Assembly (NCBI GenBank): GCA_944358125.1
Contig: CALVQM010000001.1
Span: 1 to 51,312, forward strand
Reading direction: 5' to 3'
From: an uncultured Bacilli bacterium
Lineage (GTDB): Bacteria > Bacillota_I > Bacilli_A > RF39 > UBA660
DNA: 51,312 nucleotides
The translations under genes were made by a program, and so were the position numbers. The notes under the pieces are model-generated. The model was given only the letters and a program-made list of their open reading frames with translations, did not search any database and was not told the DNA's origin. Shown here in pieces: positions 2,607 through 49,694 of this stretch. Within the stretch, counting starts at the first letter, position 1; each line of letters starts with the position of its first letter.

Positions 2607-2614
2607 AAATATCA

Positions 2615-6258: not shown

Positions 6259-6591
6259 TTAGCGTTTTGGACTAATTTCTTGGTTGTTTAGTAAAGTTTC
6301 TAGTTTTTCTATCTCTTTTGTTAGTTCTAAAATAACAGTTTTTTTAGCATTAGATGTCGTGAGTGGTGATACAGTATCTACATAAACTTTAGAAAAATGA
6401 ATTAAATTATTTAGTGTAGAAGTATCTATTTCACTTAATCTATTTTCTTCTATTACTACTATTAAAGCTTTGATGGCTTCCATTACTATATAAATCATAT
6501 CTATACTTTCAAATTTTTTCTTATTTCCGGTATGAATATTTTTAGCAAAAAAATAATATTTATCTAAAAAATTTTCGACACTATCTAACAT
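6259..6591 (-). CDS. hypothetical helical protein, 110 aa
   Basis: ORF overlapping the truA stop by 7 nt. No recognisable motif. Confidence 0.4.
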   Translation of the reverse strand: MLDSVENFLDKYYFFAKNIHTGNKKKFESIDMIYIVMEAIKALIVVIEENRLSEIDTSTLNNLIHFSKVYVDTVSPLTTSNAKKTVILELTKEIEKLETLLNNQEISPKR

Positions 6592-7322
6592 GTTCCCTCC
6601 TCATATTCTATTTTATTTAAATATAGACCATTTGGTATAGCTGTTTTAAATTGCTTTTTTATTTCTGGTGTAGCTAAAGACTTTTTAATTTCGTCTAAAC
6701 TAGCTTTGTTATTTGCTACATCTAACATAGCCCCTACTAGGTTTCTTACCATATACCGATAAAAACTTTTGCCAGTAAATTTAATTTCTAAAATATTATC
6801 TTTAATATGAAAATTAATATCATAAATAATACATTCATAATTTGGTCTTATACCAGATGTAAAATTTTTAAAGTTATGAATGCCTATAAATATTTTAGCA
6901 CATTCTTTCATTTTGTTAATATCTAATTTATAATTTGGTTGATAATAATAGTCAGTATATAGAGGATTATATTCTCCTATGTTTATTTTATAAATATATT
7001 CTTTTTTCACACAATTAAATCTAGGGTGAAAATTATTATTTACTATTTTAATATCTTTAATATAAATATATGGCGCTATAAGACTATTTAGAGCTCTTTT
7101 TAAATTATACTCTTTAATATTTATATCTAAATCAAAAGTTGCTTTGGCATCAAAGGCATGTACTCCTTTATCTGTTCTTCCAGCACCTTTTATTTTAATA
7201 TCTTTTTTGGCTATAATACTTAAGGCATCTTCTAATTTTTTTTGAATAGTTTCTTTATTTTTTAATCTTTGAAAGCCATAGAATTTAGAACCATCATAAG
7301 CCATACTTATTAAATATTTCAT
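6585..7322 (-). CDS. truA: tRNA pseudouridine(38-40) synthase TruA
   Basis: 245 aa with YDGSKFYGFQ and the catalytic GAGRTDKGVHA motif. Conserved position upstream of rplM. Confidence 0.92.
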   Translation of the reverse strand: MKYLISMAYDGSKFYGFQRLKNKETIQKKLEDALSIIAKKDIKIKGAGRTDKGVHAFDAKATFDLDINIKEYNLKRALNSLIAPYIYIKDIKIVNNNFHPRFNCVKKEYIYKINIGEYNPLYTDYYYQPNYKLDINKMKECAKIFIGIHNFKNFTSGIRPNYECIIYDINFHIKDNILEIKFTGKSFYRYMVRNLVGAMLDVANNKASLDEIKKSLATPEIKKQFKTAIPNGLYLNKIEYEEGTC

Positions 7323-7942
7323 TATTTTTGCTCCTTTAAGCGATATATGGCTTTTAATAAATCTTGAGTGTTTTTATAATTTTCAACATTTAAGCCTAAT
7401 TCTTTCATTAATTTAATAAATCTTATAATTTCGGGTTCATTAGCTTTATCTATAAATTCAAAGTATTTTTCTTTAGGAATAGTGTTAATAACAAAGTATT
7501 CGTCCACAATTAATAGTTCTTTTATATTATTCCATAAAACTGTAATATCATTGGTAAATAAAATTACGGTTCTTTGATAATCACTAGTCATTCTTTTCAT
7601 TAATCTTATGAAATAGTCTATTTCTTTGTGATTGAAACTCTTATCAAAATAATCTAATACTAAATAATCCTTGGCATCAATTAAAGCTTTGGCAAGAGAT
7701 ACTTTTTTTAATTCACCAATAGATAGATCATTAGCTTTTTTATCTATATAACTTTCATCTAATAATACCATTTTTAAGGAAGATTGAGCTTTGGGACTAT
7801 TTAAGTACTCACTAACTGTACCATTAAATTTATAGTCTGTTATAATGCTATAATTAGTGTTATTAGTTGTTAAATTAATATTACCCATTAAGCCATAAAT
7901 ATAACCTTTGGGTTTGTTTTCTAAAATTTTTGCTACTTCCAT
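7322..7942 (-). CDS. degenerate ABC-ATPase-like protein (EcfA-position paralog), 206 aa
   Basis: Recognisable ABC scaffold with the catalytic motifs replaced. Walker A is GLMGNINLTTN (no GKS/T). The signature is LSIGE. Walker B is LVLDYF. The H-loop is FTND. Occupies the ecfA slot upstream of truA. Confidence 0.6.
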   Translation of the reverse strand: MEVAKILENKPKGYIYGLMGNINLTTNNTNYSIITDYKFNGTVSEYLNSPKAQSSLKMVLLDESYIDKKANDLSIGELKKVSLAKALIDAKDYLVLDYFDKSFNHKEIDYFIRLMKRMTSDYQRTVILFTNDITVLWNNIKELLIVDEYFVINTIPKEKYFEFIDKANEPEIIRFIKLMKELGLNVENYKNTQDLLKAIYRLKEQK

Positions 7943-8544
7943 AAAACATTCACCAGCTCTTCATTATTAAAATAAACTTTATCAATAACGCCATAATATT
8001 TTAAGCCATTTGATAGTTCAACAATAAATGGTAAATTAAAACCTAATTTCTTTAATATTTTTTCTTCTTGTAAAACAAGTTCTTTTTTTCCTTCCATGAT
8101 TATTTTATTTTCATGTAATACAACTAAATAATCTAATAATAAAGTTTCTTCTATATTTGTTGTATAATTAATAATTCTTTTTTTATTTAATATTAAATAC
8201 CTAATTAATCTTTCTTTAAAAGCTTTGTCTAAATAAGTTAAAACATTACAAAAGACAAATACGGTTTTAGTAGTATTTAAGCTTGCTAAAATTTTTAGTT
8301 TTAATTCATCTATTTTGGTTAAATCTTTTTTATGTATTAGTTTTTCTTCATGAAATAATTCAAAAATATCATTTGATATTTCAAAAGTTTCCATACTTCT
8401 ATCTTTGGTTATTACAATACAATTATTATTTAAATAATATATAGCATCATCAGTATAATTAAATGAAGAAGTATATAAGATAGTTGTATTAATATCATAA
8501 ATTACTTTGTTATTTACATTAAATAATTCGTTCATATACATCAC
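7933..8544 (-). CDS. degenerate ABC-ATPase-like protein (EcfA-position paralog), 203 aa
   Basis: No Walker A at all. The signature region is LTKIDELKLKILASL. Walker B is VFVFCN and the D-loop is TYLD. The C-terminal GFNLPFIVELSNGLKYYG resembles the EcfA C-terminal helix region. Confidence 0.5.
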   Translation of the reverse strand: MMYMNELFNVNNKVIYDINTTILYTSSFNYTDDAIYYLNNNCIVITKDRSMETFEISNDIFELFHEEKLIHKKDLTKIDELKLKILASLNTTKTVFVFCNVLTYLDKAFKERLIRYLILNKKRIINYTTNIEETLLLDYLVVLHENKIIMEGKKELVLQEEKILKKLGFNLPFIVELSNGLKYYGVIDKVYFNNEELVNVLWK

Positions 8545-8580
8545 TCGCTTATATAATAACAGAAAATTACTTTTTTTTAA

Positions 8581-8610
8581 AGAAAAAACTGTGTTTATGT
8601 TTACACAGTT
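8581..8610 (-). terminator. intrinsic terminator after the 500-aa surface protein gene
   Basis: Minus strand AACTGTGT-8 nt loop-ACACAGTT followed by TTTTTT. Confidence 0.7.
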
Positions 8611-8618
8611 AATTTGTA

Positions 8619-10121
8619 TTAGGAAGCTCCAACGACTTTGAATGGATTAGTTGATGTTCCTGAACCTGTTAATGAAACATCAGCACGGATATTTATGACA
8701 GGACGCACACCAGAACCAGTCCAGTCTACATTGGCTGCACCACTGCCAAGACAACCGTCCAACCACACAATGAACACGACAGCACTGCCACCAAAGTAAT
8801 GCGGTGACATGGTCCAATAATTCTGCCCTGTATATAGGTAACTTTCAGTATTAGCATTATCCCAAGTAATTCCAGTTAATATTACTTCATCACTTGTTAC
8901 TAATCCTATTGGATTTGGCAATCTTCCATTATCTTGTGATAAAATATCCACATCACTACATTGTAAACTAGCTCCTCCATTTCTTCTATCATATGCAGCA
9001 TAATAAAAGCTACTATCTGTATAATTATCTCCACTAGCTGTATTTCTGTCACTGCAAAATCCAGTTCCTGTATCTATATATTGTTCATAATGTAAATTTT
9101 TATTATTATTTTCTATATTATCATTATACCAATTATTTAAGCTTGTCATTATTGTACTAGTCCGTCCAAAGCCATGCTGTTCATCTTCTTTATAAACCAA
9201 TCCTACATAATAACGTCTATTATATGAGCTATTAAATGCACTAGTTCCAATTTGAGTTCCCATTCCTTTAGTATTAGCACTTGTCCCTTGGTAAATCATT
9301 CTAATTGACCCATCTCCATTAATCCTTATTATTCGCCAATAAAAGCCTGCAAACTCTACCCAGTTATTTGGGTTCCCTGTATAGTAATAAGTAATACCCT
9401 TGCCTCCATTTGTCCAATCGGTCGTACTATTGGTTGGAGCATTTTCACTAGCTAATATGAAACCTCCGCTTTTTAGTCCTACTGTTACTTCTTTGCTTGT
9501 ACTTGCAACATTTCCTGCTGCATCTTCTACTCTTACGGTTATAGTGTGTACACTATCTTTTTCTAATCCTTCAAACGTATAACTATTTTCTTCTGTTCTT
9601 ATTTCTTCTTCATTATCTAATTGGAAGTAGTAATAATATATTCCTATGTTATCACTAGCATTAGCTATTACAGTAATGCTATTATCTGTACCCGATGTAG
9701 ATATGGAAAGTGTTGGATTCTCATTATCCGGTATTAAATCAAAATAGAGACTACATTTTGTTCCTTTTCTATTTAAATTATAAAAGCCTAATAATCCACT
9801 TTCATAAGTAAAAGCTGCATTTTCTATTTTTTCATCATTTACTTCACAGAATGATTGTTCTTCATTTAGGGTATAGCCAAATTTAGGGGCTATATCAGTT
9901 TCTCCTGCTGGTATTGCTCCATCTTGATTAAGATACATAGCAACTATATTTAAATCAGATGGTGAGAAATTAATAGTTCCTTGTATTAAGGGAATACTCT
10001 CTGTTACTCGGTATTTAGCTTGTGTAAAATTAAGTATTAATGAACTAATTAATGATACTACTAATAATGCTATTAATATATTTCTTTTTATATGACCTCT
10101 TTTTAAAACCTCGTATTTCAT
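8619..10121 (-). CDS. membrane-anchored/secreted surface protein with Ig/Fn3-like middle and YWTMSP...GVRPVINI C-terminal module
   Basis: N-terminal TM segment (ILIALLVVSLISSLIL) followed by the conserved AKYRVTESIPLIQGTINFSP. The C-terminal motif YWTMSP...GVRPVINIRADVSLTGSGTSTNPF matches a widespread Firmicute C-terminal module (I believe DUF6273, from memory). Paralog of 49841..51184. Confidence 0.6.
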   Translation of the reverse strand: MKYEVLKRGHIKRNILIALLVVSLISSLILNFTQAKYRVTESIPLIQGTINFSPSDLNIVAMYLNQDGAIPAGETDIAPKFGYTLNEEQSFCEVNDEKIENAAFTYESGLLGFYNLNRKGTKCSLYFDLIPDNENPTLSISTSGTDNSITVIANASDNIGIYYYYFQLDNEEEIRTEENSYTFEGLEKDSVHTITVRVEDAAGNVASTSKEVTVGLKSGGFILASENAPTNSTTDWTNGGKGITYYYTGNPNNWVEFAGFYWRIIRINGDGSIRMIYQGTSANTKGMGTQIGTSAFNSSYNRRYYVGLVYKEDEQHGFGRTSTIMTSLNNWYNDNIENNNKNLHYEQYIDTGTGFCSDRNTASGDNYTDSSFYYAAYDRRNGGASLQCSDVDILSQDNGRLPNPIGLVTSDEVILTGITWDNANTESYLYTGQNYWTMSPHYFGGSAVVFIVWLDGCLGSGAANVDWTGSGVRPVINIRADVSLTGSGTSTNPFKVVGAS

Positions 10122-10260
10122 TCTTAACTCTCCTTTATGAAGTTATACTTCATTGATTTTTTTACATCTATATGATTGTATTTAATTATATTTTACATCT
10201 GTTTGGATTTAATGTCAATACAATCATTTGAATGTATGAAATTATTAGTTTGGAGGTATT

Positions 10261-10491
10261 ATGGATATAAGTAAAATTAGAGAAATTAGAGAAGATAAGG
10301 ATCTGTCTCAAAGTGATATTGCAAAGCTATTAAAGACTACTCAACAACAGTATTCTAAATATGAACTAGGAATACGTTCTATTCCATTGGAGAAACTAGA
10401 TAAACTTGCCGATTACTATGATACTTCTATTGATTATTTAGTTGGTAGAACTGATGAGAGAAAGCCTTATAAGAAAAGTATATTAAAATAA
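10261..10491 (+). CDS. XRE-family HTH transcriptional regulator, 76 aa
   Basis: HTH_3 pattern LSQSDIAKLLKTTQQQYSKYELGIRSIPLEKLDKLADYYDTSIDYLVGR. Divergent from the surface protein gene. Confidence 0.85.
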   Translation: MDISKIREIREDKDLSQSDIAKLLKTTQQQYSKYELGIRSIPLEKLDKLADYYDTSIDYLVGRTDERKPYKKSILK

Positions 10492-10527
10492 AAGATGTTA
10501 GTAATTTTTGGGTTACTAACATCTTTT
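10491..10527. terminator. bidirectional terminator between convergent XRE and AAA ATPase genes
   Basis: Perfect 13-bp stem AAGATGTTAGTAA/TTACTAACATCTT flanked by A/T runs on both sides. Confidence 0.75.
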
Positions 10528-11758
10528 AAAAATTATCTTTTAGGAGAAAATCAATTAAATTTAAATGAATAATTCCGTTTCTTGATAGATCTATTTTATC
10601 AAGAGAAATTACGTATTTTGGATAATTATCTTCCAATTTTCCTAGAGCTTCAAAATCTCTTTTTATAGCATTCTCATTACCATTTATTTCATAAGTTACT
10701 TGAATATATTTTATTGTGCCATCTTTTTTAGCTATAAAATCTATTTCACCACTTTTAGTTTTACCAATATATACTTCATAGTCTCTATTTATTAATTCAT
10801 TATAAACGATATTTTCCAAAACAATGTAGCTTTTAAATTCAGGATTATTGTTTTTTATTTGAGCTATTCCTAAATCGGTAGCATAATACTTATTTAAAGT
10901 TTTTAAAATATTTTTTCCTGCTATGTCATATCTATAAACTTTTTTTATAATTAATGCTTTACATAATGCATTAATATAATTATATAGGGTTTCATAAGAT
11001 ATTTTTTTGTTTTCATGGGAAAGGTATTTAATGAGATTTTCAGCTGAAAATTCTCTACCTGATGTTTCTAATAAATATTGAAGAATAATATCAAATAGAT
11101 AGGTATCTTTTAGTTTAAGTCTTCTTACCACATCTCTTAAAATTATAGAGTCATATACACTATGCAAATAATTTTTTATGTCTGTTTCGTCGGAAAATTC
11201 ACAGCGATTAGGAAGCCCTCCCCATTTTGCATAATCCCAAAATGTTTCTAGATTATAGCCATCTTTTTGGGTTAACAAAACATATTCTTTATAAGATAGA
11301 GGGTTAATATTAAATAACACATATCTACCAGATAATACAGTCGATAGTTCATCAGATAATAGTTTAGAATTTGATCCCGTTAAAAAGATACTAATGTTTT
11401 TTATTGATGCTCGAAGTGAATTTACAACTTTTTCAAAGGCTTCAACATTTTGAATTTCATCTAAAAATAGGTAATACATCTTATTATCTTTAATTTTAGA
11501 TTTTACATATTTATTTAATTCTTTATAATTTAATAAATCTTCAAATTCTATAAATTCAAAATTAATAAATATTATGTGTTCTTCATCAATATTATTTTTT
11601 TCTTTTAATTCATCAATTATTTGGTTTAAAATAACAGATTTCCCACACCTACGAATACCAACTAAAATTTTTACTAAATCAGAATTATAAAATCCTCTTA
11701 TCTTGGATAAATAATTTTCTCTTATAAGCATAATATCACCCTTTAGTACATTATACAC
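10526..11758 (-). CDS. AAA-family ATPase (COG1373-like: AAA_14 + DUF4143 + nuclease-like C-terminus)
   Basis: Walker A GIRRCGKS and Walker B YLFLDEIQ. The C-terminal GEIDFIAKK...IQVTYEI resembles a PD-(D/E)xK-like end, as in this widespread family. Confidence 0.7.
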   Translation of the reverse strand: MYNVLKGDIMLIRENYLSKIRGFYNSDLVKILVGIRRCGKSVILNQIIDELKEKNNIDEEHIIFINFEFIEFEDLLNYKELNKYVKSKIKDNKMYYLFLDEIQNVEAFEKVVNSLRASIKNISIFLTGSNSKLLSDELSTVLSGRYVLFNINPLSYKEYVLLTQKDGYNLETFWDYAKWGGLPNRCEFSDETDIKNYLHSVYDSIILRDVVRRLKLKDTYLFDIILQYLLETSGREFSAENLIKYLSHENKKISYETLYNYINALCKALIIKKVYRYDIAGKNILKTLNKYYATDLGIAQIKNNNPEFKSYIVLENIVYNELINRDYEVYIGKTKSGEIDFIAKKDGTIKYIQVTYEINGNENAIKRDFEALGKLEDNYPKYVISLDKIDLSRNGIIHLNLIDFLLKDNF

Positions 11759-11779
11759 TATTTTATTTGTTTTGTAAAG

Positions 11780-11840
11780 TTATTACGGTTAAGCGTAATA
11801 ACTTTTTAATTTTGAGATTTATTACGGTCTATCGTAATAA
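11780..11840. promoter_or_regulatory. twin 22-bp palindromic operators upstream of the AAA ATPase gene
   Basis: TTATTACG-N6-CGTAATAA at 11780..11801 and again at 11819..11840. The proximal copy abuts a TTTACA-17 nt-TATAAT promoter on the minus strand. Confidence 0.6.
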
Positions 11841-11848
11841 GTCTTCAA

Positions 11849-11873
11849 ATAAAAAAACTAGCTAATACTAGTT
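11849..11873 (-). terminator. intrinsic terminator of rpmE
   Basis: Minus strand AACTAG-loop-CTAGTT overlapping the stop codon, followed by TTTTTTTATTT. Confidence 0.6.
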
Positions 11874-12080
11874 CTCTTCTTTGTTTAATCCATACTTACG
11901 ATTAAATTTTTCAATATTTCCAGTTTTCTTAACTTTTCCTTGTGCTCCTGTATAGAATGGATGACATTCACTACAAATTTCAACTTGAATATTTTCTTTT
12001 GTTGAATGAGTTTTAAATGAAGCTCCACATGCACAAGTAATAGTTGCTTCTTTTACCTCTGGATGTATTCCTTTTTTCAT
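11868..12080 (-). CDS. rpmE: 50S ribosomal protein L31 (Cys-containing zinc-ribbon form)
   Basis: [19 protein letters not shown]...[10 protein letters not shown]. The start at 12080 is preceded by GGGAGGTAATT. The track ORF extends further upstream without support. Confidence 0.92.
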
Positions 12081-12158
12081 AATTACCTCCCGCCATATCA
12101 AAATTTTTTGACATAGTAAATTCATTTGTCTTAAGTATTATATCATATTTTGAGCTAA

Positions 12159-38530: not shown

Positions 38531-39880
38531 TTACAATTTAGCTTTTATTTCTTTAATTGTTTGTTCTAATTCGTGATTAGTAAGTAATTCTTGAGATATC
38601 TTATCACAAGCGAATATTACTGTTGAATGATCTCGACCTCCAAATTCTAAGCCTATTCTTGGGAAAGTTTCATCTGTTTCCATTCGGCACAGGTACATGG
38701 CTAGTTGACGCGGATGAGCTACTTTGTTGCTTCGTTTCTTTCCTTTTAAATCTTCAATTGTTATATTATAGTGATCAGCGACGGCTTTTTGAATTTTGGT
38801 AATATTATTGTTAGAATAGATATTTTTATTAACAAAATCTTTTAAGGCTTCACAAGTAAATTCTAAATCAATTGTTTTAGGAACAATCATTGCGGTGTAT
38901 GCCATAAGTCTGTTAATTGCTCCTTCTAGAAATCTTATGTCATTTTGACAAGCATTAGCAATATATTCAATGCTTTCTTCTTTTATTAGGCCCGCTAGAC
39001 TAGTATTTTCGATTTTTTTCCTGATAATTCGACATCTTAAGTCAAAATCGGGTGGATAAATATCTACGGGTAAGCCCCACATAAATCTGGACCGCAGGCG
39101 TTCTTCTAAAATTTTTAAATCTTCTGGAGATCGGTCACTACTGATAATAATTTGTTTATTCGACTGATGTAGATAATTAAAAGTGTTGAAAAATTCTTGT
39201 TGGGTTTTTTCGGCTCCTACTAGGTACTGGATATCATCAATAATTAAAACATCTACATTGCGGTATTTATTTTTAAAATCATTGGCATATTCTACAGTAT
39301 TTTTGGCATTATCCGGATTAGCAATATTCGTATATTCGGTCATAAATTCATCACAAGTACAATATAATACTTTTCGATTAGAATTCTCTGTTATAAAATT
39401 ACCTATTGCGTGCATTAAATGCGTTTTACCAAGACCACTTTTTCCATATATAAATAAAGGATTATGGATTCGACCCGGGGCTTCTGCTACGGCCATGGCC
39501 GCTACTTTAGCAAGTCTATTGGTATCTCCTACGACAAAGTTATCAAAGTTTAGATTGGGATTTAGGTTTGTTTCAAAATTACTATTGTTAGTAACTTCAT
39601 TGTTATTAACAACTATATCAGGTGTTTCTTCAATATCACTTTCTAAGACAAATTCAATATCGTAATTTATATTGGTTATGCTAGCCAGTGTTTTTTCAAT
39701 TAAAGAATAATAATTATCTCCTAGCATTTTTTTATGAATTTCCATGGGGACTTTAAAAGTTATTTTATCACTTGTTAGACTTACAATACTCAAGTCATTG
39801 AACCAGGCATGGAAAGATGCTGGATTGATCTCTTTATAGATGTTATCTAAAAATAGTTTTAATAATTCTTCTTTATCCAA
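38531..39880 (-). CDS. dnaA: chromosomal replication initiator protein DnaA
   Basis: AAA+ Walker A GKSGLGKTHL, LIIDDIQ, and domain IV RDHSTV. Likely TTG start at 39880 after GGGGTGAGG. The track ORF extends to 39916. Confidence 0.93.
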   Translation of the reverse strand: MDKEELLKLFLDNIYKEINPASFHAWFNDLSIVSLTSDKITFKVPMEIHKKMLGDNYYSLIEKTLASITNINYDIEFVLESDIEETPDIVVNNNEVTNNSNFETNLNPNLNFDNFVVGDTNRLAKVAAMAVAEAPGRIHNPLFIYGKSGLGKTHLMHAIGNFITENSNRKVLYCTCDEFMTEYTNIANPDNAKNTVEYANDFKNKYRNVDVLIIDDIQYLVGAEKTQQEFFNTFNYLHQSNKQIIISSDRSPEDLKILEERLRSRFMWGLPVDIYPPDFDLRCRIIRKKIENTSLAGLIKEESIEYIANACQNDIRFLEGAINRLMAYTAMIVPKTIDLEFTCEALKDFVNKNIYSNNNITKIQKAVADHYNITIEDLKGKKRSNKVAHPRQLAMYLCRMETDETFPRIGLEFGGRDHSTVIFACDKISQELLTNHELEQTIKEIKAKL

Positions 39881-39916
39881 CTTTAACCTCACCCCACAGT
39901 CTGGACTTTTTAACAC

Positions 39917-40320
39917 ATTAATTGTATCGCATTTTTTTTGTAATTTAAAGTCTAAAATGACAAATTTTTTTATTCACATGTTATCCACATGACTTATGCC
40001 TTATAATACCTTAGTTTTTAGGTTTTATCAACATTATCCACAAAATTTATTAAAAATTTATTCACTATTCACAATTTTAAAATTTTAGTTAATTGTTAGT
40101 AATGTGGATAACTTTTAAATTTGATACACAAGAAGCGGTTGTTACAGGGATTAGATATAAATATGGTTTTGTGGATAACTAGGTTTTTATTCACATTTTA
40201 ATTCAAAAATGGTGTTGATAAATATTTTTCTTATTCTTTTTTATTATAAGTGATTGTTTATAAAAAGTGGATAGTTTTATTTTCGAGCTTCTAACCCGGT
40301 TATTCCTTAAAAAAACTTGA
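39917..40320. other. oriC DnaA-box cluster upstream of dnaA
   Basis: Perfect TTATCCACA/TGTGGATAA boxes at 39981..39989, 40034..40042, 40103..40111 and 40170..40178. One-mismatch TTATTCACA boxes at 39970..39978 and 40187..40195. Confidence 0.85.
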
Positions 40321-40378
40321 CTAAACATGAATTAAATATTATAATTAAAACACTTGAATTTTTAAGGAGGTGTTCGTT

Positions 40379-40501
40379 ATGAAAAGTACATATCAACCTA
40401 ATAATCGTAAAAAAGCTAAAAAACATGGATTTTTTGCTAGAAAAGAAACTAATATTTTAAAGAACAGACGTAAAAAAGGTCGTAAAGTTTTATGTAAGTA
40501 G
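40379..40501 (+). CDS. rpmH: 50S ribosomal protein L34
   Basis: Not in the ORF track. [49 protein letters not shown] 7 nt upstream. Confidence 0.93.
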
Positions 40502-40528
40502 CCACTTTTTGCAGTGGTATTTTTTTTC
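40501..40528 (+). terminator. hairpin plus T-run between rpmH and rnpA (probable partial terminator)
   Basis: GCCACT-loop-AGTGGT followed by ATTTTTTTT. Confidence 0.5.
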
Positions 40529-40553
40529 TTATTTTTAATTTGGAGTGATACTG

Positions 40554-40895
40554 ATGAGAAAATTTGAAGTTGTTAAGAAGAATGATGAATTTAATGATAT
40601 AATTAAATCAGGAAAGTATTTAAGAAATCATTTTTATAATATATATTATAAGGATGGAAATAGTGACTATCCGAAATTTGGATTAGCGGTTAGTAAGAAG
40701 TTTGGAACGGCTGTAGAAAGAAATAAAATTAAACGACAACTTCGAACTTTGATTGATCATAATAAAAACTTGTTTTCAAAACGTCATAATTATATTATAA
40801 TGGTAAGAGGTGGAGTAAAAGATTTAACTTACCAAGAAATGGAGATACAATTGGTTCAGTTGTTAGAGAAAGGAAAGTTTAATGAAAAAAATTAA
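40554..40895 (+). CDS. rnpA: ribonuclease P protein component
   Basis: KKNDEFNDIIKSGK and the RNR-type motif AVERNKIKRQLR. ATG at 40554 after GGAGTGA. Confidence 0.9.
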   Translation: MRKFEVVKKNDEFNDIIKSGKYLRNHFYNIYYKDGNSDYPKFGLAVSKKFGTAVERNKIKRQLRTLIDHNKNLFSKRHNYIIMVRGGVKDLTYQEMEIQLVQLLEKGKFNEKN

Positions 40896-41909: not shown

Positions 41910-42518
41910 ATGAATGTAGTAGTAAAAAGTGCTAAATTTAAAGAAGAAGCTTTAGAATTAGTTTTAAAGGAATTAAATGCAAGTGAAGAAGAAGTTGTCT
42001 ATTCTTTTAAGGAAGTTAAGGGTGGTCTTTTTAAAGGTGTTACTTATGAATGTAAGGGATTTTTAAAGACAGATATTTTAACTGAACTTCAAGAGTATTT
42101 AAAAGGTATAATAACGGGTATGGGCTTAGAAGTATCTTTTGAAGTTAATACAAAAGATGGTGTAACAACAATAAAGATGTATACTTCGAATAATCCAATT
42201 ATTATTGGTCATAATGGTCAAAATTTGGATGCGTTAACAACTATTGCTCGTCAATTTATTAAAAATATTACTTCTAATGGACCTAAAATACTTTTGGATG
42301 TTGAAGATTATAAGGATAGACAAGTAAAAAGATTAGAGCGACTTGCTAAGAATTTGGCTCGTGATGTTATAAAAACTAAAACAGATGTGGAAATGGATAA
42401 TATGAATTCTTATGAAAGAAGAGTTGTTCATAATGCTTTATCTGATTTTAAAGGCGTTAAGACAGAAAGTGTTGGAGAAGAACCTAATAGACATGTTGTT
42501 ATAAAATATGATAAATAA
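41910..42518 (+). CDS. jag: Jag/KhpB RNA-binding protein (Jag_N-KH-R3H)
   Basis: 202 aa with the R3H-type end MNSYERRVVHNALSDFKGVKTESVGEEPNRHVVI. Follows yidC. Confidence 0.9.
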   Translation: MNVVVKSAKFKEEALELVLKELNASEEEVVYSFKEVKGGLFKGVTYECKGFLKTDILTELQEYLKGIITGMGLEVSFEVNTKDGVTTIKMYTSNNPIIIGHNGQNLDALTTIARQFIKNITSNGPKILLDVEDYKDRQVKRLERLAKNLARDVIKTKTDVEMDNMNSYERRVVHNALSDFKGVKTESVGEEPNRHVVIKYDK

Positions 42519-42718
42519 GTACCTTAGGGTGCTTTTTTTGTGCAACGAAAAACCTCAGTTTTTGATGTGAATCCTGTTTGATAGACATCATAAAAAAACT
42601 TCTCATAATAAAGTCAAGTATTTTCTGCAAAATTTTTAACTTTATTTTTATTTTCTAGATTTTTAAATTTTAGATAAAAAATTATCTGATTTTATTAGGC
42701 AACTATTTGTAAAACGTG

Positions 42719-42747
42719 TTGACAACTTTTAATATTAGTGATAAATT
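42719..42747 (+). promoter_or_regulatory. sigma-A promoter of the peptide/AlaRS-like/radical-SAM operon
   Basis: TTGACA(42719)-17 nt-TAAATT(42742) with TG at the extended -10 position. Confidence 0.65.
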
Positions 42748-42775
42748 AATTACTAATATTTGAAGAGGTGAAATT

Positions 42776-42892
42776 ATGAGTGTGAGTTTTAAAGGAAAAT
42801 ACAATATTAAATCTATTATGATGATTACAGTATTTTCTTTCCTCATGCTCTTTATTTTAAATGACGTTGGTGCTAGGGCGATTTATCGCTAA
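42776..42892 (+). CDS. 38-aa hydrophobic peptide (MSVSFKGKYNIKSIMMITVFSFLMLFILNDVGARAIYR)
   Basis: Not in the ORF track. SD AGAGGTGA 5 nt upstream of the ATG. It is the first cistron after the promoter. Basic N-terminus, one TM-length hydrophobic stretch, no Cys. Confidence 0.5.
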   Translation: MSVSFKGKYNIKSIMMITVFSFLMLFILNDVGARAIYR

Positions 42893-42912
42893 ATTTTTTA
42901 ATTGTTAGAAAG

Positions 42913-43911
42913 TTGGTAATAATTGTGGAAGAAAAATTTAAAACGAAGAGTGAATATTTGGATTTTGTTGAACAAAAATTTAAAGATTGTTTTAGTAGTA
43001 AAGACTATATTGAAGAACAACCTGTAAATATAACATCTCAAGTTGATAAAACTGTTGATTTTATAGGCTCTAAAATTTCGCCATTAAAAAAATATGTTTT
43101 AACAGAAGATTTTGGTGAGAATGGAAGATTTTTGATTCAAAACAGTATGAAATTAAAATCATTACGGTATTTGAAAGAAACTACACCACAAAAATTTGGC
43201 TCTTATTATAAATGTATGGGAACACTTTCAAAGCCTGATTTGGAAAAAGTTGTATTTGATATGTTTGAATATTTAACTTATGAAAAATATTTAGGTATAG
43301 ATTTAGATGATATATGTATAAAGATTTGTTCCAAAGATGATGATTTAATGGGAGCTATAAGAAATGTTGATAGTAGAATAAATCGCGAAGTTGACAAAAC
43401 TAGTATTGAACATTATAGACATAAATATGGTATGTCTAAAGAAAATATAACGGGTAGAGATTTTAATATTGGAATTCGAAAAAAAGGTACTAATGATTAT
43501 TTTAGTTGTGGTACTTTTGTATTAATGGAATCTCCTGATAAAAAAATAGCAATAGATATGGGAATAGGTAATTGTTCTTTATCTATGTGCAAATTTGGTG
43601 TTGATTCAACTGTGCAAAGTTCACGAATGGCAGATTTAATTAATATAGATTCAATTGAAAAAGAAAAATTTGCTGATTCTTTAATTGCTGTCTCTACATT
43701 ATTAAAAGAGGATATAATAAATCATCCTTCTAAACATTTTAGAAAAAAATTTAGACTGTATTTTAATGCATTATCTTATTGGAGTGAAAAGTTAAATATT
43801 ACTGAAGAAGAAATATTAATTTATGCGTTGGACTATTTAAATTTAGAATATAAAGAAAATTTTTCATATACTGATGAAAGATTTGCTAAAATTTTAACAT
43901 TACATAAATAG
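42913..43911 (+). CDS. free-standing alanyl-tRNA-synthetase catalytic-core-like protein (divergent class II aaRS paralog)
   Basis: By-eye colinear match to the E. coli AlaRS N-terminal domain. VDFIGSKISPLKKYVL aligns with LLFTNAGMNQFKDVFL. YYKCMGTLS aligns with FFEMLGNFS. FEYLTYEKY aligns with WELLTSEKW. AIDMGIGNC aligns with VDTGMGLER. FADSLIAVSTLL aligns with IADHIRSCAFLI. No tRNA-binding or editing domains are present. The start codon is uncertain (TTG 42913 or GTG 42925). Confidence 0.55.
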   Translation: MVIIVEEKFKTKSEYLDFVEQKFKDCFSSKDYIEEQPVNITSQVDKTVDFIGSKISPLKKYVLTEDFGENGRFLIQNSMKLKSLRYLKETTPQKFGSYYKCMGTLSKPDLEKVVFDMFEYLTYEKYLGIDLDDICIKICSKDDDLMGAIRNVDSRINREVDKTSIEHYRHKYGMSKENITGRDFNIGIRKKGTNDYFSCGTFVLMESPDKKIAIDMGIGNCSLSMCKFGVDSTVQSSRMADLINIDSIEKEKFADSLIAVSTLLKEDIINHPSKHFRKKFRLYFNALSYWSEKLNITEEEILIYALDYLNLEYKENFSYTDERFAKILTLHK

Positions 43912-43925
43912 TAGGAGGTTAGAGT

Positions 43926-46061
43926 ATGAAGAAAGTTAATATTTTTGAAAATCCAGAATTTTATCGAAAAATGATATTGAAATATAATAGTTTACTAAAG
44001 TATGATATAGATAAATGTAATGGTAAATCATTGATATGTGTATTTTTTACATCATATTGTGGTGTTGGTTGTCCTTTTTGCTTTTTTCATTCTCCAAGTT
44101 TAAAGAAAGAAAATAACTTATTAGAAGAATTAGAAAATCATTTTTCAAGAGATGGAATAGAAAAATTTATTTCATTTGCAAATGAATCTAATGTTGGCTA
44201 TTTACAAATTTCTGGTGGTGGAGAGCCTTTTTTAGAAAAAAATGCAATTATAGAATGCTTGAAAAGAGTAGAAGCTGATAGAATTATACTTGTAACAAGT
44301 GGCTCTTGGGCATTTGATAAAGTGAAAGCAGAAGAGTATATTGATGATTTGTATGATGCTTTTAATGAACGAAAAAGTAAAGCTAGGGTAACTATTAGAC
44401 TTAGCGTTAGTGATTATCATAATATAAAATTAAAAGGAAAACCGGTTGTAAATTTAATAAAAATTTTTGATGATAAATATAAGAATGATAAAAATTTTAC
44501 TTTACAATTAAAAACTTTTGAAAATGATAATTCTCTTGTAAATTTATTAAATGAGTACTTTCCAGGATTTAAGCTAAATATTGTAGAAGATAATGGTTCA
44601 GACGATTTCAATCACATCAAGATTATGCCTTGGAAGTATGTGTTAACTTTAAAATCTGGGTTTAAGATTATTGTAGGAAAATCTAGAATTTTTAATTCTA
44701 ATTTGCGTCCTAATTTATATGATAAAGAGGAAATAAGGAAAAGTGAAAAGATATATGATACTGATTTAGAGTTATCTCAGAAAAATAATTCATCTATTGT
44801 TTATAATAGTAATGGTATTAATGGAATTGATTGGATTGTAGAGTATAATGGTAATGTGTGTACTTGGCAAAATAGAGTTCAAGATAATTTGTTAAATATA
44901 TATGAAGATAATTATAATGATGTTTTGCGTAATACTTATAGTGATCCACTTACTTATTCTTATATAGATAAGGGAGCAAAATATAGGGAAAAAATAGTTA
45001 GTGAGGTGTCTCCTAAAACAGTTTCTTTAATGAAATCTGTTAATATTCGTGATTATGCAGGAACACAATTATTTTTGGATGAGAAAATAAGATTATACTA
45101 TACAATAAGAGTAATACAAGATTATCTTTTGGAAGATAAAATAAATACCGATGTTTTAAATGAATTTCCTAAAGAGTTAATAAATGCAATTAAATCTAAT
45201 TTAAAGGAGTTGAAATGTAATTATTTTAAATCAAATTATAGTATTTTAGAACAAGAGTTAAGTATTCCTGTAAATGCATTGGAACTTCACGATTTTTTAG
45301 AATTAGTAAAATTAGGACATTTTGAAATTTCTGATGATAAGGTACAAAAGGCTATTAAGTATTATAATTTTATTTCCAATAGTAATATTAATAGTATTGA
45401 TGAAATCAAATGTTCTAGTGATTTAGAAATTGAAAAAAGACTGACAAAAAGAATGATGGAAAGGAAAAAGATTAAATCTGAAGAGGCACCTATATATTAC
45501 TATTTATGTAGGCATGGTGAAACAAATTGGAATGTTGAAAAGCGAATTAAAGGACAGTTAGAAACTATTGATACAGAATTCACTGAGCGTGGTATTAAAC
45601 AGATTGAAACTCTTGCAACTTTTATTGAATCTAATAATGTTCAAGCTATTTTTTCTTCTGATTTGAGTAGAACTGTGGAAACTGCTAGAATAGTAAATAA
45701 CAAAATTAATGTTCCTTTATATTTCTATAATAAATTTAGAGGGTTAAACATGGGAGACTTTCAAGGTAAATCTATTGATTGTTTTTTAAATGATGACTAT
45801 GTGAAAGAATGCTTTAAAGATTATAATTTAGTTATACCTGGTGGCGAAAGTATAAATCAATTAATATCTAGATTTAAAGATGGTATGGATATTATAAGAA
45901 ATAAGTATAATTATGATAGAGTTTCTATTATTTCTCATGGTGCTGCAATTAGTAATATTAAATCATCAATAAGTGGAGATAAATATGAAAATATTGATTA
46001 TTGTGTTTTGAAATATTATAATAATAATTATGAAATAGTTGAGTATGGAAACTACAATTAA
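43926..46061 (+). CDS. radical SAM domain / unknown middle domain / histidine phosphatase (PGM-family) fusion protein, 711 aa
   Basis: N-terminus has the CX3CX2C motif in FFTSYCGVGCPFCFF plus ISGGGEPF. The C-terminus (from about aa 520) has LCRHGETNWN...SDLSRTVETA...ISHGAAI, the RHG/H phosphatase signature. SD AGGAGG lies 7 nt upstream. Confidence 0.8.
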   Translation: MKKVNIFENPEFYRKMILKYNSLLKYDIDKCNGKSLICVFFTSYCGVGCPFCFFHSPSLKKENNLLEELENHFSRDGIEKFISFANESNVGYLQISGGGEPFLEKNAIIECLKRVEADRIILVTSGSWAFDKVKAEEYIDDLYDAFNERKSKARVTIRLSVSDYHNIKLKGKPVVNLIKIFDDKYKNDKNFTLQLKTFENDNSLVNLLNEYFPGFKLNIVEDNGSDDFNHIKIMPWKYVLTLKSGFKIIVGKSRIFNSNLRPNLYDKEEIRKSEKIYDTDLELSQKNNSSIVYNSNGINGIDWIVEYNGNVCTWQNRVQDNLLNIYEDNYNDVLRNTYSDPLTYSYIDKGAKYREKIVSEVSPKTVSLMKSVNIRDYAGTQLFLDEKIRLYYTIRVIQDYLLEDKINTDVLNEFPKELINAIKSNLKELKCNYFKSNYSILEQELSIPVNALELHDFLELVKLGHFEISDDKVQKAIKYYNFISNSNINSIDEIKCSSDLEIEKRLTKRMMERKKIKSEEAPIYYYLCRHGETNWNVEKRIKGQLETIDTEFTERGIKQIETLATFIESNNVQAIFSSDLSRTVETARIVNNKINVPLYFYNKFRGLNMGDFQGKSIDCFLNDDYVKECFKDYNLVIPGGESINQLISRFKDGMDIIRNKYNYDRVSIISHGAAISNIKSSISGDKYENIDYCVLKYYNNNYEIVEYGNYN

Positions 46062-46844: not shown

Positions 46845-48203
46845 ATGGCTAAAAAGGTTGTTATTGATCCTGGTCATGGAGGAGAAGATCCTGGAACTAG
46901 TGCTAATGGAATTGTTGAAAAAGATTATACTTTGTTAATTAGTCAATATATGGCTGATCGTTTAACGGAACTAGGAATAGAAAATGCTTTAACTAGGGAT
47001 AGTGATGTTACACTTGATTCAACGACAAGACCTAAGACTGCTCAAAGTTTATTTGGTACGGGTAGTGATGTTATTTTGGTATCTAATCATATTAACGCTG
47101 GTGGTGGAGATGGAGCAGAAATAATTTATGCTTTAAGAAATAGTGATACTTTATCTAGTAAGATAGCTAGTGAATTTATTAAGTCTGGACAAAATGTAAG
47201 AAAGTATTATCAAAGAAGACTTCCTAGTAATTCTAGTAAAGATTATTATTACATTTTAAGAGAAACACCTAATAATGAATCTATTATTGTGGAATATGGC
47301 TTTGCTGATTCAACAGGGGATGATGTCAATCAAATTAAAAATAATTATAAAGAACTTGCTGAGGCAGTTGTAAGGGCTCTTGCTAATTATATTGGTGTAG
47401 CTTATACAGCTCCAGCAGGAAGTGGTGGTAATTATTATACGGTTAAAGCTGGAGATACTTTATATGGAATTGCAAGAAATTATGGTATTAGTGTTGATGA
47501 ACTTAAAGCTGCTAATAATTTAACAAGTAATACTCTTACGATTGGAGAAGTATTAATTATTCCGGAAGTAGAGACACCAGAAACTCCTGATGAAAATATT
47601 TATATTGTTAAAAGTGGAGATACTCTTTATTCTATTGCCAATAAATATGGGATGAGTGTTAATGAACTTAAATCTTTAAATAATGTTACAAGTGATGTTT
47701 TATCTATTGGTCAGGAATTAATAGTTAGTGAAGGTAACGCAGCAACACTCGATACTTATACAGTTAAATCTGGTGATACTTTGTATAGTATTGCTAATAA
47801 ATATGGTTTAACAGTAAATGAATTAAAGCAACTTAATAATTTAACTAGTGATATTTTAAGTATTGGACAAGTGTTAAATATTAGTAATAGTGTATCATCT
47901 CCTAACCCATCTAATACTTATACAGTTAAAAGTGGAGATTCTTTATATAGTATTGCTAAAAAGTATGGTATAACGGTAGATGCTTTAAAAAGTGCTAATG
48001 GAAAAACTTCTAATTTACTTTCTATTGGAGAAATATTAGTTATACCAACTACAACAGCGACTACTAGAACTTACACTGTTAAATCTGGTGATAGTTTGTG
48101 GAAAATAGCTACTAATTATGGGGTTAGTGTGAATGCTTTAAAGCAAGCGAATGGCCTTACAAGTGATCTTTTATCAATAGGTCAAGTACTTGTAATTCCT
48201 TAG
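46845..48203 (+). CDS. N-acetylmuramoyl-L-alanine amidase (Amidase_3) with five LysM repeats
   Basis: VIDPGHGGEDPGT...HINAGGG catalytic domain. Five tandem LysM repeats of the YTVKSGDTLYSIA..YG..V..LK..N.L.S..L.IGQ.L.I type. No N-terminal signal peptide is visible. Confidence 0.9.
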   Translation: MAKKVVIDPGHGGEDPGTSANGIVEKDYTLLISQYMADRLTELGIENALTRDSDVTLDSTTRPKTAQSLFGTGSDVILVSNHINAGGGDGAEIIYALRNSDTLSSKIASEFIKSGQNVRKYYQRRLPSNSSKDYYYILRETPNNESIIVEYGFADSTGDDVNQIKNNYKELAEAVVRALANYIGVAYTAPAGSGGNYYTVKAGDTLYGIARNYGISVDELKAANNLTSNTLTIGEVLIIPEVETPETPDENIYIVKSGDTLYSIANKYGMSVNELKSLNNVTSDVLSIGQELIVSEGNAATLDTYTVKSGDTLYSIANKYGLTVNELKQLNNLTSDILSIGQVLNISNSVSSPNPSNTYTVKSGDSLYSIAKKYGITVDALKSANGKTSNLLSIGEILVIPTTTATTRTYTVKSGDSLWKIATNYGVSVNALKQANGLTSDLLSIGQVLVIP

Positions 48204-48642: not shown

Positions 48643-48672
48643 ATAAAAAAATACCTATTTATTAAGGTATTT
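48643..48672 (-). terminator. intrinsic terminator of the XRE gene pair
   Basis: Minus strand AATACCT-loop-AGGTATT overlapping the stop, followed by TTTTTTTATTTT. Confidence 0.6.
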
Positions 48673-49113
48673 AGGATGGTCTATTTTACCAAGTAAATAA
48701 TCCGCAGAGATATTATATTTTTTACATATTTGGTATAAATAAGTTGTAGCAATAATATAATTCCCTTTTTCATATTTTGCTAACATAGAATTATCTACAT
48801 TTAAAATATCCGCTAATTTAATTTGGGTAAGATTATTTTCTTTTCTGATCTCTTTTAATCGTTCACTAGATAATTTGATATTAATTTCATCTCTTAAGTT
48901 TTTATATTTTTTAATATTAGTAAATTCAAATATATAATCAATTGAGACATTAAAATAGTTACATAAAGTATTTAGATGTATTATCGGGATGGTTTGCTCT
49001 TCTTTTTCATACCTGCTATATAAACTATCAGATATTTTTAATAAATTAGATATTTCAATATTAGTTTTCCCATATCTATCTCTTAATTGATATAATTTTA
49101 TACCATAGTTCAC
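48655..49113 (-). CDS. XRE-family regulator with two HTH_3 domains, 152 aa
   Basis: Two HTH repeats (ISNLLKISDSLYSRYEK and LADILNVDNSMLAKYEKG). GTG start at 49113 by alignment with the paralog at 49236..49694. Confidence 0.8.
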   Translation of the reverse strand: MNYGIKLYQLRDRYGKTNIEISNLLKISDSLYSRYEKEEQTIPIIHLNTLCNYFNVSIDYIFEFTNIKKYKNLRDEINIKLSSERLKEIRKENNLTQIKLADILNVDNSMLAKYEKGNYIIATTYLYQICKKYNISADYLLGKIDHPKYLNK

Positions 49114-49156
49114 GTATATCACCATATACAATTTCTCATATCTACGTTTTTTTGAC

Positions 49157-49235: not shown

Positions 49236-49694
49236 TTAACTAATATAACTTTTAGGTTTATCTGTTTTTCCTAATAGATAATCAGCGGAAATACCATATT
49301 TTTTGCAGATTTGGTATAAATAAGAAGTAGCAATTGGAAAAAGTGCTCTTTCATATTTTGAAATTGTAGAATTATCTGTATTTAATATGGTTGCAATTTT
49401 TAATTGAGTTAATTTGTTTTCTTTTCTAAATTCCTTTAATCTTTGAGAAGATAAGTTAATATTTATTTCTTTTTTAGATTTGTTATAGTTTTTTAATTTA
49501 GTAAAATTAAAAATATAATCTAATGAAACACCAAAATAATTACATAAAGTATTTAAATGTTTTATTGGGATAGTTTGCTTGTTTTTTTCGTATCTGCTAT
49601 ATAGGCTATCAGATATTTTTAATAAGTTTGCCATTTCTACATTAGTAAGTCCTTGACGATCTCTTAAATTAAATAGTTGTTTTCCATAGTCCAT
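49236..49694 (-). CDS. XRE-family regulator with two HTH_3 domains, 152 aa (tandem paralog)
   Basis: Colinear with 48655..49113 at roughly two-thirds identity by eye. Confidence 0.85.
   Translation of the reverse strand: MDYGKQLFNLRDRQGLTNVEMANLLKISDSLYSRYEKNKQTIPIKHLNTLCNYFGVSLDYIFNFTKLKNYNKSKKEININLSSQRLKEFRKENKLTQLKIATILNTDNSTISKYERALFPIATSYLYQICKKYGISADYLLGKTDKPKSYIS

Follow-up and report, generated by a model that had tools for sequence, protein, structure and literature searches.

In nucleoside antibiotic biosynthesis, the pairs PolH/NikJ with PolJ and OxsB with the HD phosphohydrolase OxsA each combine a radical S-adenosylmethionine (SAM) enzyme acting on a nucleotide with a dedicated phosphohydrolase that afterwards frees the nucleoside. 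Here, we describe a gene in which a predicted radical-SAM enzyme and a predicted histidine phosphatase are joined in a single polypeptide, together with the three-gene cassette to which it belongs. The gene lies in a stretch of 51,312 nucleotides from an uncultured Bacilli bacterium of the RF39 lineage (GenBank assembly GCA_944358125.1, contig CALVQM010000001.1, positions 1 to 51,312 of the forward strand), referred to below as the window. Unlike the fusion, the described pairs are separate proteins from other radical-SAM and phosphatase families, and the likeness is one of logic. A looser parallel, by description only, is offered by the nucleocidin pathway, which has a radical-SAM enzyme (nucJ) and a histidine phosphatase (Orf3) that is essential for fluorination (PMC10946740). 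The three genes of the cassette, with lengths in amino acids (aa), are:

42913..43911, plus strand: truncated alanyl-tRNA synthetase (AlaRS) paralogue, first cassette gene; 332 aa from a TTG start, 317 aa from the start chosen by gene callers
43926..46061, plus strand: radical-SAM/histidine-phosphatase fusion gene; intact open reading frame with an ATG start, 711 aa
46039..46785, plus strand: Peptidase_S51-family hydrolase, last cassette gene; 248 aa from a TTG that overlaps the fusion stop, or 234 aa from the next ATG

By analogy, the logic of this cassette resembles that of aminoacyl-nucleoside antibiotic pathways. In the puromycin-type pathways (puromycin, A201A, cystocin and 3'-amino-3'-deoxyguanosine), which use Pur10, Pur4, the Nudix enzyme Pur7, the monophosphatase Pur3, the aminoacyl-nucleoside synthetase Pur6, the hydrolase NapH and the exporter Pur8, a purine nucleoside triphosphate (NTP) is modified on the ribose, dephosphorylated by Pur7 and Pur3, aminoacylated by Pur6 and exported, with reactivation by a hydrolase (PMC11641026). 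The radical-SAM family to which the fusion belongs has the same kinds of partner, namely NUDIX proteins, a monophosphatase, an aminoacyl-ligase-like protein, a hydrolase and MFS and ABC exporters, whereas the ribose chemistry would be of the radical-SAM type here instead of relying on a dehydrogenase and an aminotransferase. No Pur homology was detected among the cassette proteins as far as tested, and the analogy is one of logic, not of membership.

In ascamycin biosynthesis, AcmF, a truncated AlaRS-like protein without most of the activation residues, moves alanine from Ala-tRNA onto an adenosine-derived nucleoside, and the hydrolase AcmE reverses this aminoacylation (PMC12945691). The cassette likewise has a stand-alone truncated AlaRS paralogue that comprises only aminoacylation and tRNA-recognition parts, along with a hydrolase by which the aminoacyl group could be taken off, in what is presumed here to be the context of a modified adenine nucleoside. 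Activation residues seem partly lost in the cassette protein too (the motif-3 Arg and the Asn212 equivalent), AcmF being compared by description only. The two systems also differ: the cassette has no sulfamate genes and carries an S51 serine peptidase instead of a secreted alpha/beta-hydrolase, the acm cluster has no counterpart of the radical-SAM/phosphatase fusion, and the hosts are Streptomyces on one side and gut Bacilli and candidate phyla radiation (CPR) bacteria on the other. AcmF is the only comparable truncated AlaRS case found in the literature searched, and by this comparison the AlaRS-like cassette protein may be a putative AcmF-type transferase that places an amino acid from aminoacyl-tRNA onto a nucleoside.

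Our preferred reading, to which a probability of roughly 45% is assigned, is that the radical-SAM/phosphatase cassette biosynthesizes an aminoacylated modified nucleoside. The radical-SAM module would use a 5'-deoxyadenosyl radical for the modification of a phosphorylated substrate of the nucleotide type, most probably an adenine nucleotide whose ribose is attacked, and the fused phosphatase would strip the phosphate and thereby release the modified nucleoside. The AlaRS-like protein would then add an amino acid to this nucleoside, either as an ATP-dependent ligase or as an AcmF-like aminoacyl-tRNA-dependent transferase, and the S51 serine hydrolase would take the amino acid off again, for activation or for self-protection. 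Such a pathway would yield an antimetabolite or prodrug of the aminoacyl-nucleoside type. The flanking AlaRS-like and S51 genes are the strongest clue to the pathway; what the substrate is, in which order the steps occur and what is finally produced are inferred.

The fusion itself is a real and widely conserved gene. An identical 711-aa protein is encoded on 93 contigs (NCBI, ENA and Logan assemblies), and full-length fusions form ~70 clusters of 45-94% identity from gut Bacilli, Clostridia, Alphaproteobacteria and Patescibacteria. AlphaFold2 (AF2), run on a 74-sequence alignment, returned a single compact model with a pLDDT of 93.7 and a pTM of 0.92. Because of these three observations, the chance that the gene is an artefact (a frameshift, a misassembly or a chance open reading frame) is practically nil; an earlier note, made from the sequence alone, had raised the possibility of two genes joined by a frameshift, which the identical contigs and the fusion clusters exclude. 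The same note had considered the architecture unusual and undescribed. Literature searches for the fusion architecture or for the radical-SAM family indeed found no description, and public annotations call the proteins just 'histidine phosphatase family protein' or 'PhoE', but the architecture recurs in metagenomes and is not rare.

The product is predicted to be a bifunctional enzyme, with catalytic motifs intact in both halves. The N-terminal motif FFTSYCGVGCPFCFF occupies aa 40-54 and holds C45, C49 and C52, and ISGGGEPF follows at aa 95-102; in the C-terminal half, YYYLCRHGETNWN (aa 524-536) contains R529 and H530, and SHGAAI (aa 670-675) contains H671. Pfam detected Fer4_12 (PF13353) at aa 32-134 (E = 8.5e-7, 29.8 bits against a cut-off of 22) and His_Phos_1 at aa 526-707 (E = 1.7e-33), while Radical_SAM (PF04055) at aa 40-144 stayed under its cut-off (E = 3e-4, 21.4 against 29.5 bits). 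Neither Pfam nor NCBIfam gave a match for aa 145-525, and NCBIfam added no family-level assignment. The parts of the gene are:

43926..44600, plus strand: radical-SAM core, aa 1-225 (Pfam, family profile, AF2 secondary structure)
44058-44081, plus strand: CX3CX2C cluster motif, aa 45-52 (sequence)
44601..45485, plus strand: family-specific extension, aa 226-520 (conservation, AF2; no known domain matched)
45492..46049, plus strand: His_Phos_1 branch-1 phosphatase domain, aa 523-708 (the Pfam match above, Foldseek)
45513-45515, plus strand: phosphatase nucleophile H530 (sequence; with R529, R582, E641 and H671)

An exhaustive HMMER search of 1.84 billion cluster representatives, at a threshold of E <= 1e-30, recovered 115 proteins, most of which are 500-540 aa long, align to approximately positions 5-515 of the query and lack the phosphatase. 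The extension is present in all of the ~520-aa stand-alone members. Because these members span aa 1-520 without the phosphatase, and because the extension is as conserved as the core, aa 1-520 form a single conserved module, which belongs to a hitherto undescribed radical-SAM family and here carries an added phosphatase. Neither Pfam (2025) nor NCBIfam (June 2026) has a model for this module, and in the PDB only its core was matched.

The core has the features expected of a single-cluster enzyme. The GGGEP SAM-binding motif lies at aa 97-101, with S96-G-G-G-E100-P conserved in the family, and the invariant residues of the core are T42, C45, C49, C52, G97, G99 and E100. In the AF2 model, six alternating beta/alpha units within aa 35-225 follow the (beta/alpha)6 pattern of a partial barrel. 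Among 74 family members, C45, C49 and C52 are invariant in all 74 and no other cysteine is; C38 (85% conserved) and C312 (73%) are isolated residues, and the Cys-rich C-terminal auxiliary-cluster motif of SPASM/twitch proteins is missing from the module. Since only these three cysteines are invariant, a single cluster without a SPASM/twitch auxiliary site is expected. The module is thus predicted to combine a lone [4Fe-4S] cluster with a ~290-aa beta/helical extension, which is obligatory, and to have no auxiliary cluster. AF2 places a beta region at aa 233-313 of this extension, followed by a helical bundle at aa 330-510, and its invariant or near-invariant residues include D280, D302, YNGN 307-310, W314, D320, R354, E360, R375, Y391 and R395. 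Basic residues conserved in the module include K34, R119, R158, K232, R354, R375, R389 and R395.

The phosphatase half is equally well preserved, as all 35 fusions compared share R529, H530, G531, E532, T533, N536, R582, E641 and H671 without exception. Its top Foldseek matches are PhoE (1h2e), CobC (6e4b and 6nru) and the riboflavin-pathway HFP (9mmh), with target TM scores of 0.75-0.79. The NCBIfam equivalogs score far below their cut-offs (GpmB 90 against 261 bits, CobC 83 against 162.9, PspA 72 against 350), so the domain is best described as a generic phosphatase-type member that cannot be assigned as an orthologue of these. From its residues and fold, the C-terminal 190-residue region is predicted to be a catalytically intact branch-1 histidine phosphatase. 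PhoE/YhfR, CobC (alpha-ribazole-5'-phosphate phosphatase), PspA and the riboflavin HFP share the fold and the full catalytic set with it, and several of them dephosphorylate nucleotide-like monophosphates; unlike the window protein, none is fused to a radical-SAM domain.

Much of what the earlier note had read directly from the letters was recovered by these analyses: CX3CX2C and ISGGGEPF at the N-terminus, the lack of a SPASM or twitch cluster, and the full histidine-phosphatase signature including the distal histidine of SHGAAI. Its account of a ~270-aa unknown domain between the two halves stands only in part. The region has no match in Pfam, NCBIfam or the PDB, but it is an obligatory part of the ~520-aa radical-SAM family and not a connector. 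A separate known domain at this place was dropped as an explanation, as nothing was found in Pfam, NCBIfam or a dedicated PDB search with the profile of aa 226-520 (best E 0.19).

Genomic neighborhood analysis provides evidence on the substrate. The survey covered 72 loci from species-representative genomes and several metagenomic contigs, for which open reading frames were called and clustered and the representatives annotated. A phosphoesterase is fused to the module, or lies at most four genes away, in 51 of the 71 non-redundant loci. Among unfused neighbours, phosphoesterases account for 8.8% of genes within two positions against 2.1% beyond four (odds ratio 4.6, p ~1e-4), a significance that is inflated because closely related, non-independent genomes are included. 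The phosphatases are diverse. At ~15 loci of uncultured Clostridia, from a distant clade (35-38% identity), a stand-alone 174-aa histidine phosphatase with 25-29% identity to aa 526-684/707 of the window protein is encoded directly upstream of a 527-aa radical-SAM homologue. NUDIX domains are fused C-terminally, fused N-terminally or encoded next to the module, EEP phosphatases accompany it in clusters of Chlamydiae and Verrucomicrobia, and PHP and ARMT1-like phosphatase domains, as well as a second His_Phos, occur inside giant module proteins. The link between module and phosphatase appears to have arisen several times.

Other recurrent partners point to nucleotides, adenine in particular. 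An adenosine deaminase (PF00962) is fused to the module in proteins of 813-816 aa or encoded beside it, and kinase partners comprise an adenylate kinase with a dTMP-kinase-like P-loop protein and an NDK-like protein. The module is also fused to a dCTP-deaminase-like domain and to SIR2_2, and further partners are an RpiB-NUDIX protein and an RmlD-like SDR. The family is, in short, consistently linked to phosphoesterases and nucleotide enzymes, and the proposal made from the fusion alone, of a phosphorylated substrate or product such as a nucleotide or sugar phosphate, is backed by both kinds of partner. B12-binding radical-SAM proteins, methyltransferases, a carbamoyltransferase, ABC and MFS exporters and a LuxR-type STAND regulator are partners of a biosynthetic type, and with them the partner set looks like that of small biosynthetic clusters. 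A second radical-SAM protein, related to RlmN and Cfr, adjoins the module in 6 loci from 5 phyla. RlmN and Cfr methylate adenine at C2 or C8. The N-terminal ~70 residues are absent from the partner, which aligns to profile positions 70-346 only and scores 168-226 bits against a cut-off of 290. It is encoded at:

L017 10108-11004 (overlapping the end of the fusion gene) and L029 1163-2137 (minus strand); also in L014, L015, L023 and L074: RlmN/Cfr-like partner

The module was found in Clostridium sp. CAG:417, Mycoplasma sp. CAG:611 and other uncultured gut Bacilli, in Patescibacteria, DPANN archaea and Chlamydiae, and in Legionellaceae and Paracaedibacteraceae, which are mostly small-genome, host-associated lineages. 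Phage records, plasmid records and IMG/VR contigs do not carry it; only the phosphatase part was matched there. A ~480-aa version is embedded in giant proteins, namely P0182 (6629 aa), P0181 (3259 aa), P0185 (2920 aa), P0140, P0130, P0141, P0154, P0165 and P0170. P0181 also holds His_Phos_1, P0141 holds SIR2_2 and P0170 holds ARMT1-like phosphatase and M54 peptidase domains, and most of the length of these proteins has no Pfam match.

The first cassette gene supplies the proposed aminoacylation step. Its 332-aa product has no Pfam match and only a weak NCBIfam match to AlaRS (E = 1.8e-5), in line with other sequence profiles that also favour AlaRS weakly. An AF2 model with a pLDDT of 94.5 was compared with the PDB by Foldseek, and the AlaRS catalytic fragments 3hxu, 1riq, 9jc7 and 4xem were matched at E = 2e-16 to 1e-15, with query TM scores of 0.72-0.76 and 14% identity; on the strength of this model, the protein is predicted to have the AlaRS fold. 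It comprises the aminoacylation domain and a short helical part of the tRNA-recognition domain, with neither an editing nor a C-Ala domain, and so lacks the full AlaRS architecture. By a tentative alignment at 14% identity, K/R80 corresponds to AlaRS R69 and D/E215 to D235. The family is narrow, with ~100 clusters that are all at least 44% identical.

The third gene encodes a hydrolase that matches PF03575 with 49.6 bits against a cut-off of 23.9. All 18 cassette homologues compared retain its nucleophile motif, G145-x-S147-A-G, as well as H186. As the PepE equivalog reaches only 30 of the 156 bits required, the protein is not assignable as a PepE orthologue.

These three genes travel together. 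The AlaRS-like gene is found beside the fusion and S51 genes in every AlaRS-like locus looked up, and the trio occurs in three different gene orders. In P0022 (951 aa), radical-SAM, His_Phos and S51 domains are combined in one protein, and Janthinobacterium encodes an unfused module in one cluster with AlaRS-like, MFS-transporter and NDK-like genes. In the window, the genes are tightly packed, and a weak terminator-like hairpin found by a consensus scan (2 sites against 0.9 expected) precedes them:

42517..42534, plus strand: terminator-like hairpin directly 3' of jag

As this hairpin would end the rnpA-yidC-jag unit, the cassette is probably a transcription unit of its own. A promoter scan was uninformative (46 sites against 44.5 expected). 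None of the small open reading frames at 42519-42912 is conserved in 17 related loci, and neither is the intergenic DNA. Elsewhere, the cassette is directly followed by the same kind of gene in four loci:

L011 11065-12717; also in L012, L013 and L028: large serine recombinase (Resolvase, Recombinase and Zn ribbon), directly after the cassette

This adjacency points to a location of the cassette at the border of an integrative element, and judging from such contexts the cassette appears to be a horizontally mobile operon.

Several points weigh against the biosynthesis of an aminoacylated nucleoside. The model is comparative at every step, and the hosts are small-genome symbionts, not known natural-product producers. 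Among solved structures, the radical-SAM core is closest to YydG, which epimerizes peptides and is not a nucleotide enzyme. The chemistry of the AlaRS-like protein is uncertain, because the motif-3 Arg and the Asn212 equivalent are seemingly lost: in the tentative alignment at 14% identity, a variable T201 stands at the N212 position and S/T/A222 at that of the motif-3 Arg. Six fusion loci have no complete adjacent AlaRS-like gene (L013, L015, L016, L019, L020 and L023); contig ends truncate several of them, S51 is retained in L013 and L020, and S51 together with a Cfr-like gene in L015 and L023. Foldseek with the full model was uninformative on the fold of the extension, as the PDB matches listed are phosphatases and the matches listed from BFVD are generic phosphatase or radical-SAM proteins with low TM scores. 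The inflated neighborhood statistics belong here as well.

The main rival, although it is itself unlikely, is a viperin-like anti-phage defense, in which the module would turn a cellular NTP into a chain-terminating or toxic nucleotide during infection, with kinases supplying the substrate and the phosphatase or NUDIX partner limiting self-toxicity or recycling. Viperins and pVips are, like the module, single-cluster radical-SAM proteins associated with nucleotide kinases, and they act on a free nucleotide, a substrate known for viperin and presumed here; the kinase neighbours recall kinase-associated viperins in particular. A weak PADLOC match to pVip at the cluster-binding region (E = 1.2e-5), the fusions to SIR2_2, dCTP-deaminase-like and adenosine deaminase domains, all known as defense effector domains, and the STAND NTPase neighbour are consistent with such a role, as is the mobility of the cassette, with its recombinase alongside in four loci and varied contexts elsewhere. 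However, the pVip match spans just 77 of 257 profile positions (2-78), the NCBIfam viperin model misses the fusion, and the PDB search with the family profile found no viperin structure at E <= 1. Membership of the fusion in the viperin family was rejected on these grounds, and the fusion's family, at ~520 aa, has a 290-aa extension that viperins lack. No cassette protein convincingly matches PADLOC models, the cassette adjoins rnpA-yidC-jag at the origin and not a defense island, and exporters, methyltransferases, a carbamoyltransferase and an aminoacyl-transferase-like partner suit biosynthesis better.

An RNA-directed system was considered next and is improbable. Here the module and its Cfr-like partner would modify an adenosine of tRNA or rRNA, the AlaRS-like protein would read the acceptor end, the phosphatase would remove a terminal 2',3'-cyclic, 3'- or 5'-phosphate and S51 would deacylate. 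The part of the tRNA-recognition domain within the AlaRS fold, the RlmN/Cfr-like partners and the location of the cassette beside jag/KhpB and rnpA in the window, and beside LysRS or TyrRS in two other loci, would all fit. Yet the Cfr-like partner is without the N-terminal domain of RlmN, the Pfam scan detected no RNA-binding domain in the fusion, and NUDIX, adenosine deaminase, the adenylate, dTMP-like and NDP kinases, RpiB, SDR and exporters act on free nucleotides or sugars.

A housekeeping role in nucleotide-auxotrophic symbionts, as salvage or detoxification by disposal of 5'-deoxyadenosine or conversion of scavenged nucleotides, with merely syntenic neighbours, is very doubtful. It would agree with the concentration of the family in small-genome, host-associated lineages and with one locus whose neighbours are an ENPP-type phosphodiesterase, a NUDIX protein and a cytidylate kinase. 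The distribution is nevertheless patchy and the context mobile, and proteins of gut Bacilli or Clostridia are ~50% identical to those of Patescibacteria or Alphaproteobacteria; such identity across these phyla suggests transfer and not a vertically inherited core function. Moreover, 5'-deoxyadenosine has no phosphate for the phosphatase or the kinases to act on.

Least probable of the four is a peptide pathway of the RiPP (ribosomally synthesized and post-translationally modified peptide) or pearlin type, in which the module would modify a peptide, the AlaRS-like protein append an amino acid, S51 release the product and the phosphatase remove an activating phosphate: aminoacyl-tRNA-dependent peptide extension is known (PMC12945691), an S51 peptidase lies within the operon and the nearest solved structure by sequence is that of YydG (8ai3, whose core the family profile matched across aa 37-210 with E = 2.5e-9), but YydG has auxiliary-cluster cysteines, a peptide substrate and a different C-terminal extension, the module has no SPASM/twitch cysteines, and across the family its partners are enzymes of nucleotides and not of peptide processing. 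The idea of a precursor peptide encoded ahead of the cassette was dropped, as the 17 related loci share no conserved small open reading frame.

If the cassette does make an aminoacylated modified nucleoside, a large unannotated branch, with at least 100 cluster representatives at 50% identity, would be added to the radical-SAM enzymes, many of its members fused to nucleotide-metabolizing domains and some embedded in proteins of 3,000-6,600 aa. It would also represent a second independent recruitment of a truncated AlaRS paralogue to small-molecule metabolism, after AcmF, and would place nucleoside-type bioactives in abundant uncultured gut bacteria and episymbionts instead of the usual producers. 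The finding exposes an uncharacterized radical-SAM family with a clear nucleotide-and-phosphatase theme. Since the exact protein is common (93 contigs, many metagenomes), its product could matter for gut ecology, and with just three genes in the operon, the proposal lends itself to direct testing. A more far-reaching version is possible on the same analogies, though unlikely as a whole: aa 1-520 would be the hallmark of a new enzyme class that modifies nucleotides by radical-SAM chemistry and is widespread among uncultured symbionts (gut RF39-like Bacilli, Patescibacteria, DPANN, Chlamydiae, Legionellaceae), and the cassette would make, in common human-gut bacteria and by an undescribed ribose radical chemistry, a novel aminoacyl-nucleoside antimetabolite or prodrug that resembles ascamycin or puromycin and inhibits either translation or an aminoacyl-tRNA synthetase.

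The window as a whole spans the chromosomal origin region (noted for 38531-40895 and 750-3961): the minus strand carries dnaA, dnaN, recF and gyrB, the plus strand carries rnpA, yidC and jag, and the GC skew flips near 40 kb. The genes mnmE and mnmG commonly follow jag. Here, they lie ~40 kb from it, on the minus strand, and the cassette takes the position after jag. Beyond the cassette, 46845-48203 encodes an Amidase_3 protein with five LysM repeats, and just downstream of it are two tandem paralogous regulators of closely similar sequence (48655-49131 and 49236-49694, both minus strand), the first of which has two XRE-type helix-turn-helix domains by Pfam.

Further associations were observed at other loci of the family. 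Two partner families for which Pfam, NCBIfam and PDB sequence searches returned no match, and which add no functional information, directly adjoin the module in many loci:

L046 7232-8005: partner family c1, ~257 aa, in uncultured Clostridia
L005 6916-8004 and 11048-12175: partner family c6, ~360 aa, often in two copies, in Chlamydiae and Verrucomicrobia

A short RelA/SpoT homologue of 479-503 aa, in which HD, synthetase and TGS domains but no C-terminal regulatory ones were detected, is encoded directly upstream of the cassette in L021 (6390-7901), L085 (4455-5903) and L087 (516-1955), and also in L032 and L077. It adjoins two different cassette arrangements, and the adjacency could be a (p)ppGpp-type nucleotide link or just conserved synteny. 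In L087, the stretch after the cassette (7779-12146) is an island rich in nucleotide phosphohydrolases, with an MBL-fold hydrolase (weak Apyc1-like match), two more S51 proteins, an ENPP-type phosphodiesterase and two NUDIX proteins. In L023, from Staskawiczbacteria, a LysRS gene (6562-7980; 490 bits against a cut-off of 468) overlaps the start of the fusion gene by 4 nucleotides and sits where the AlaRS-like gene is elsewhere; its product is probably the housekeeping enzyme.

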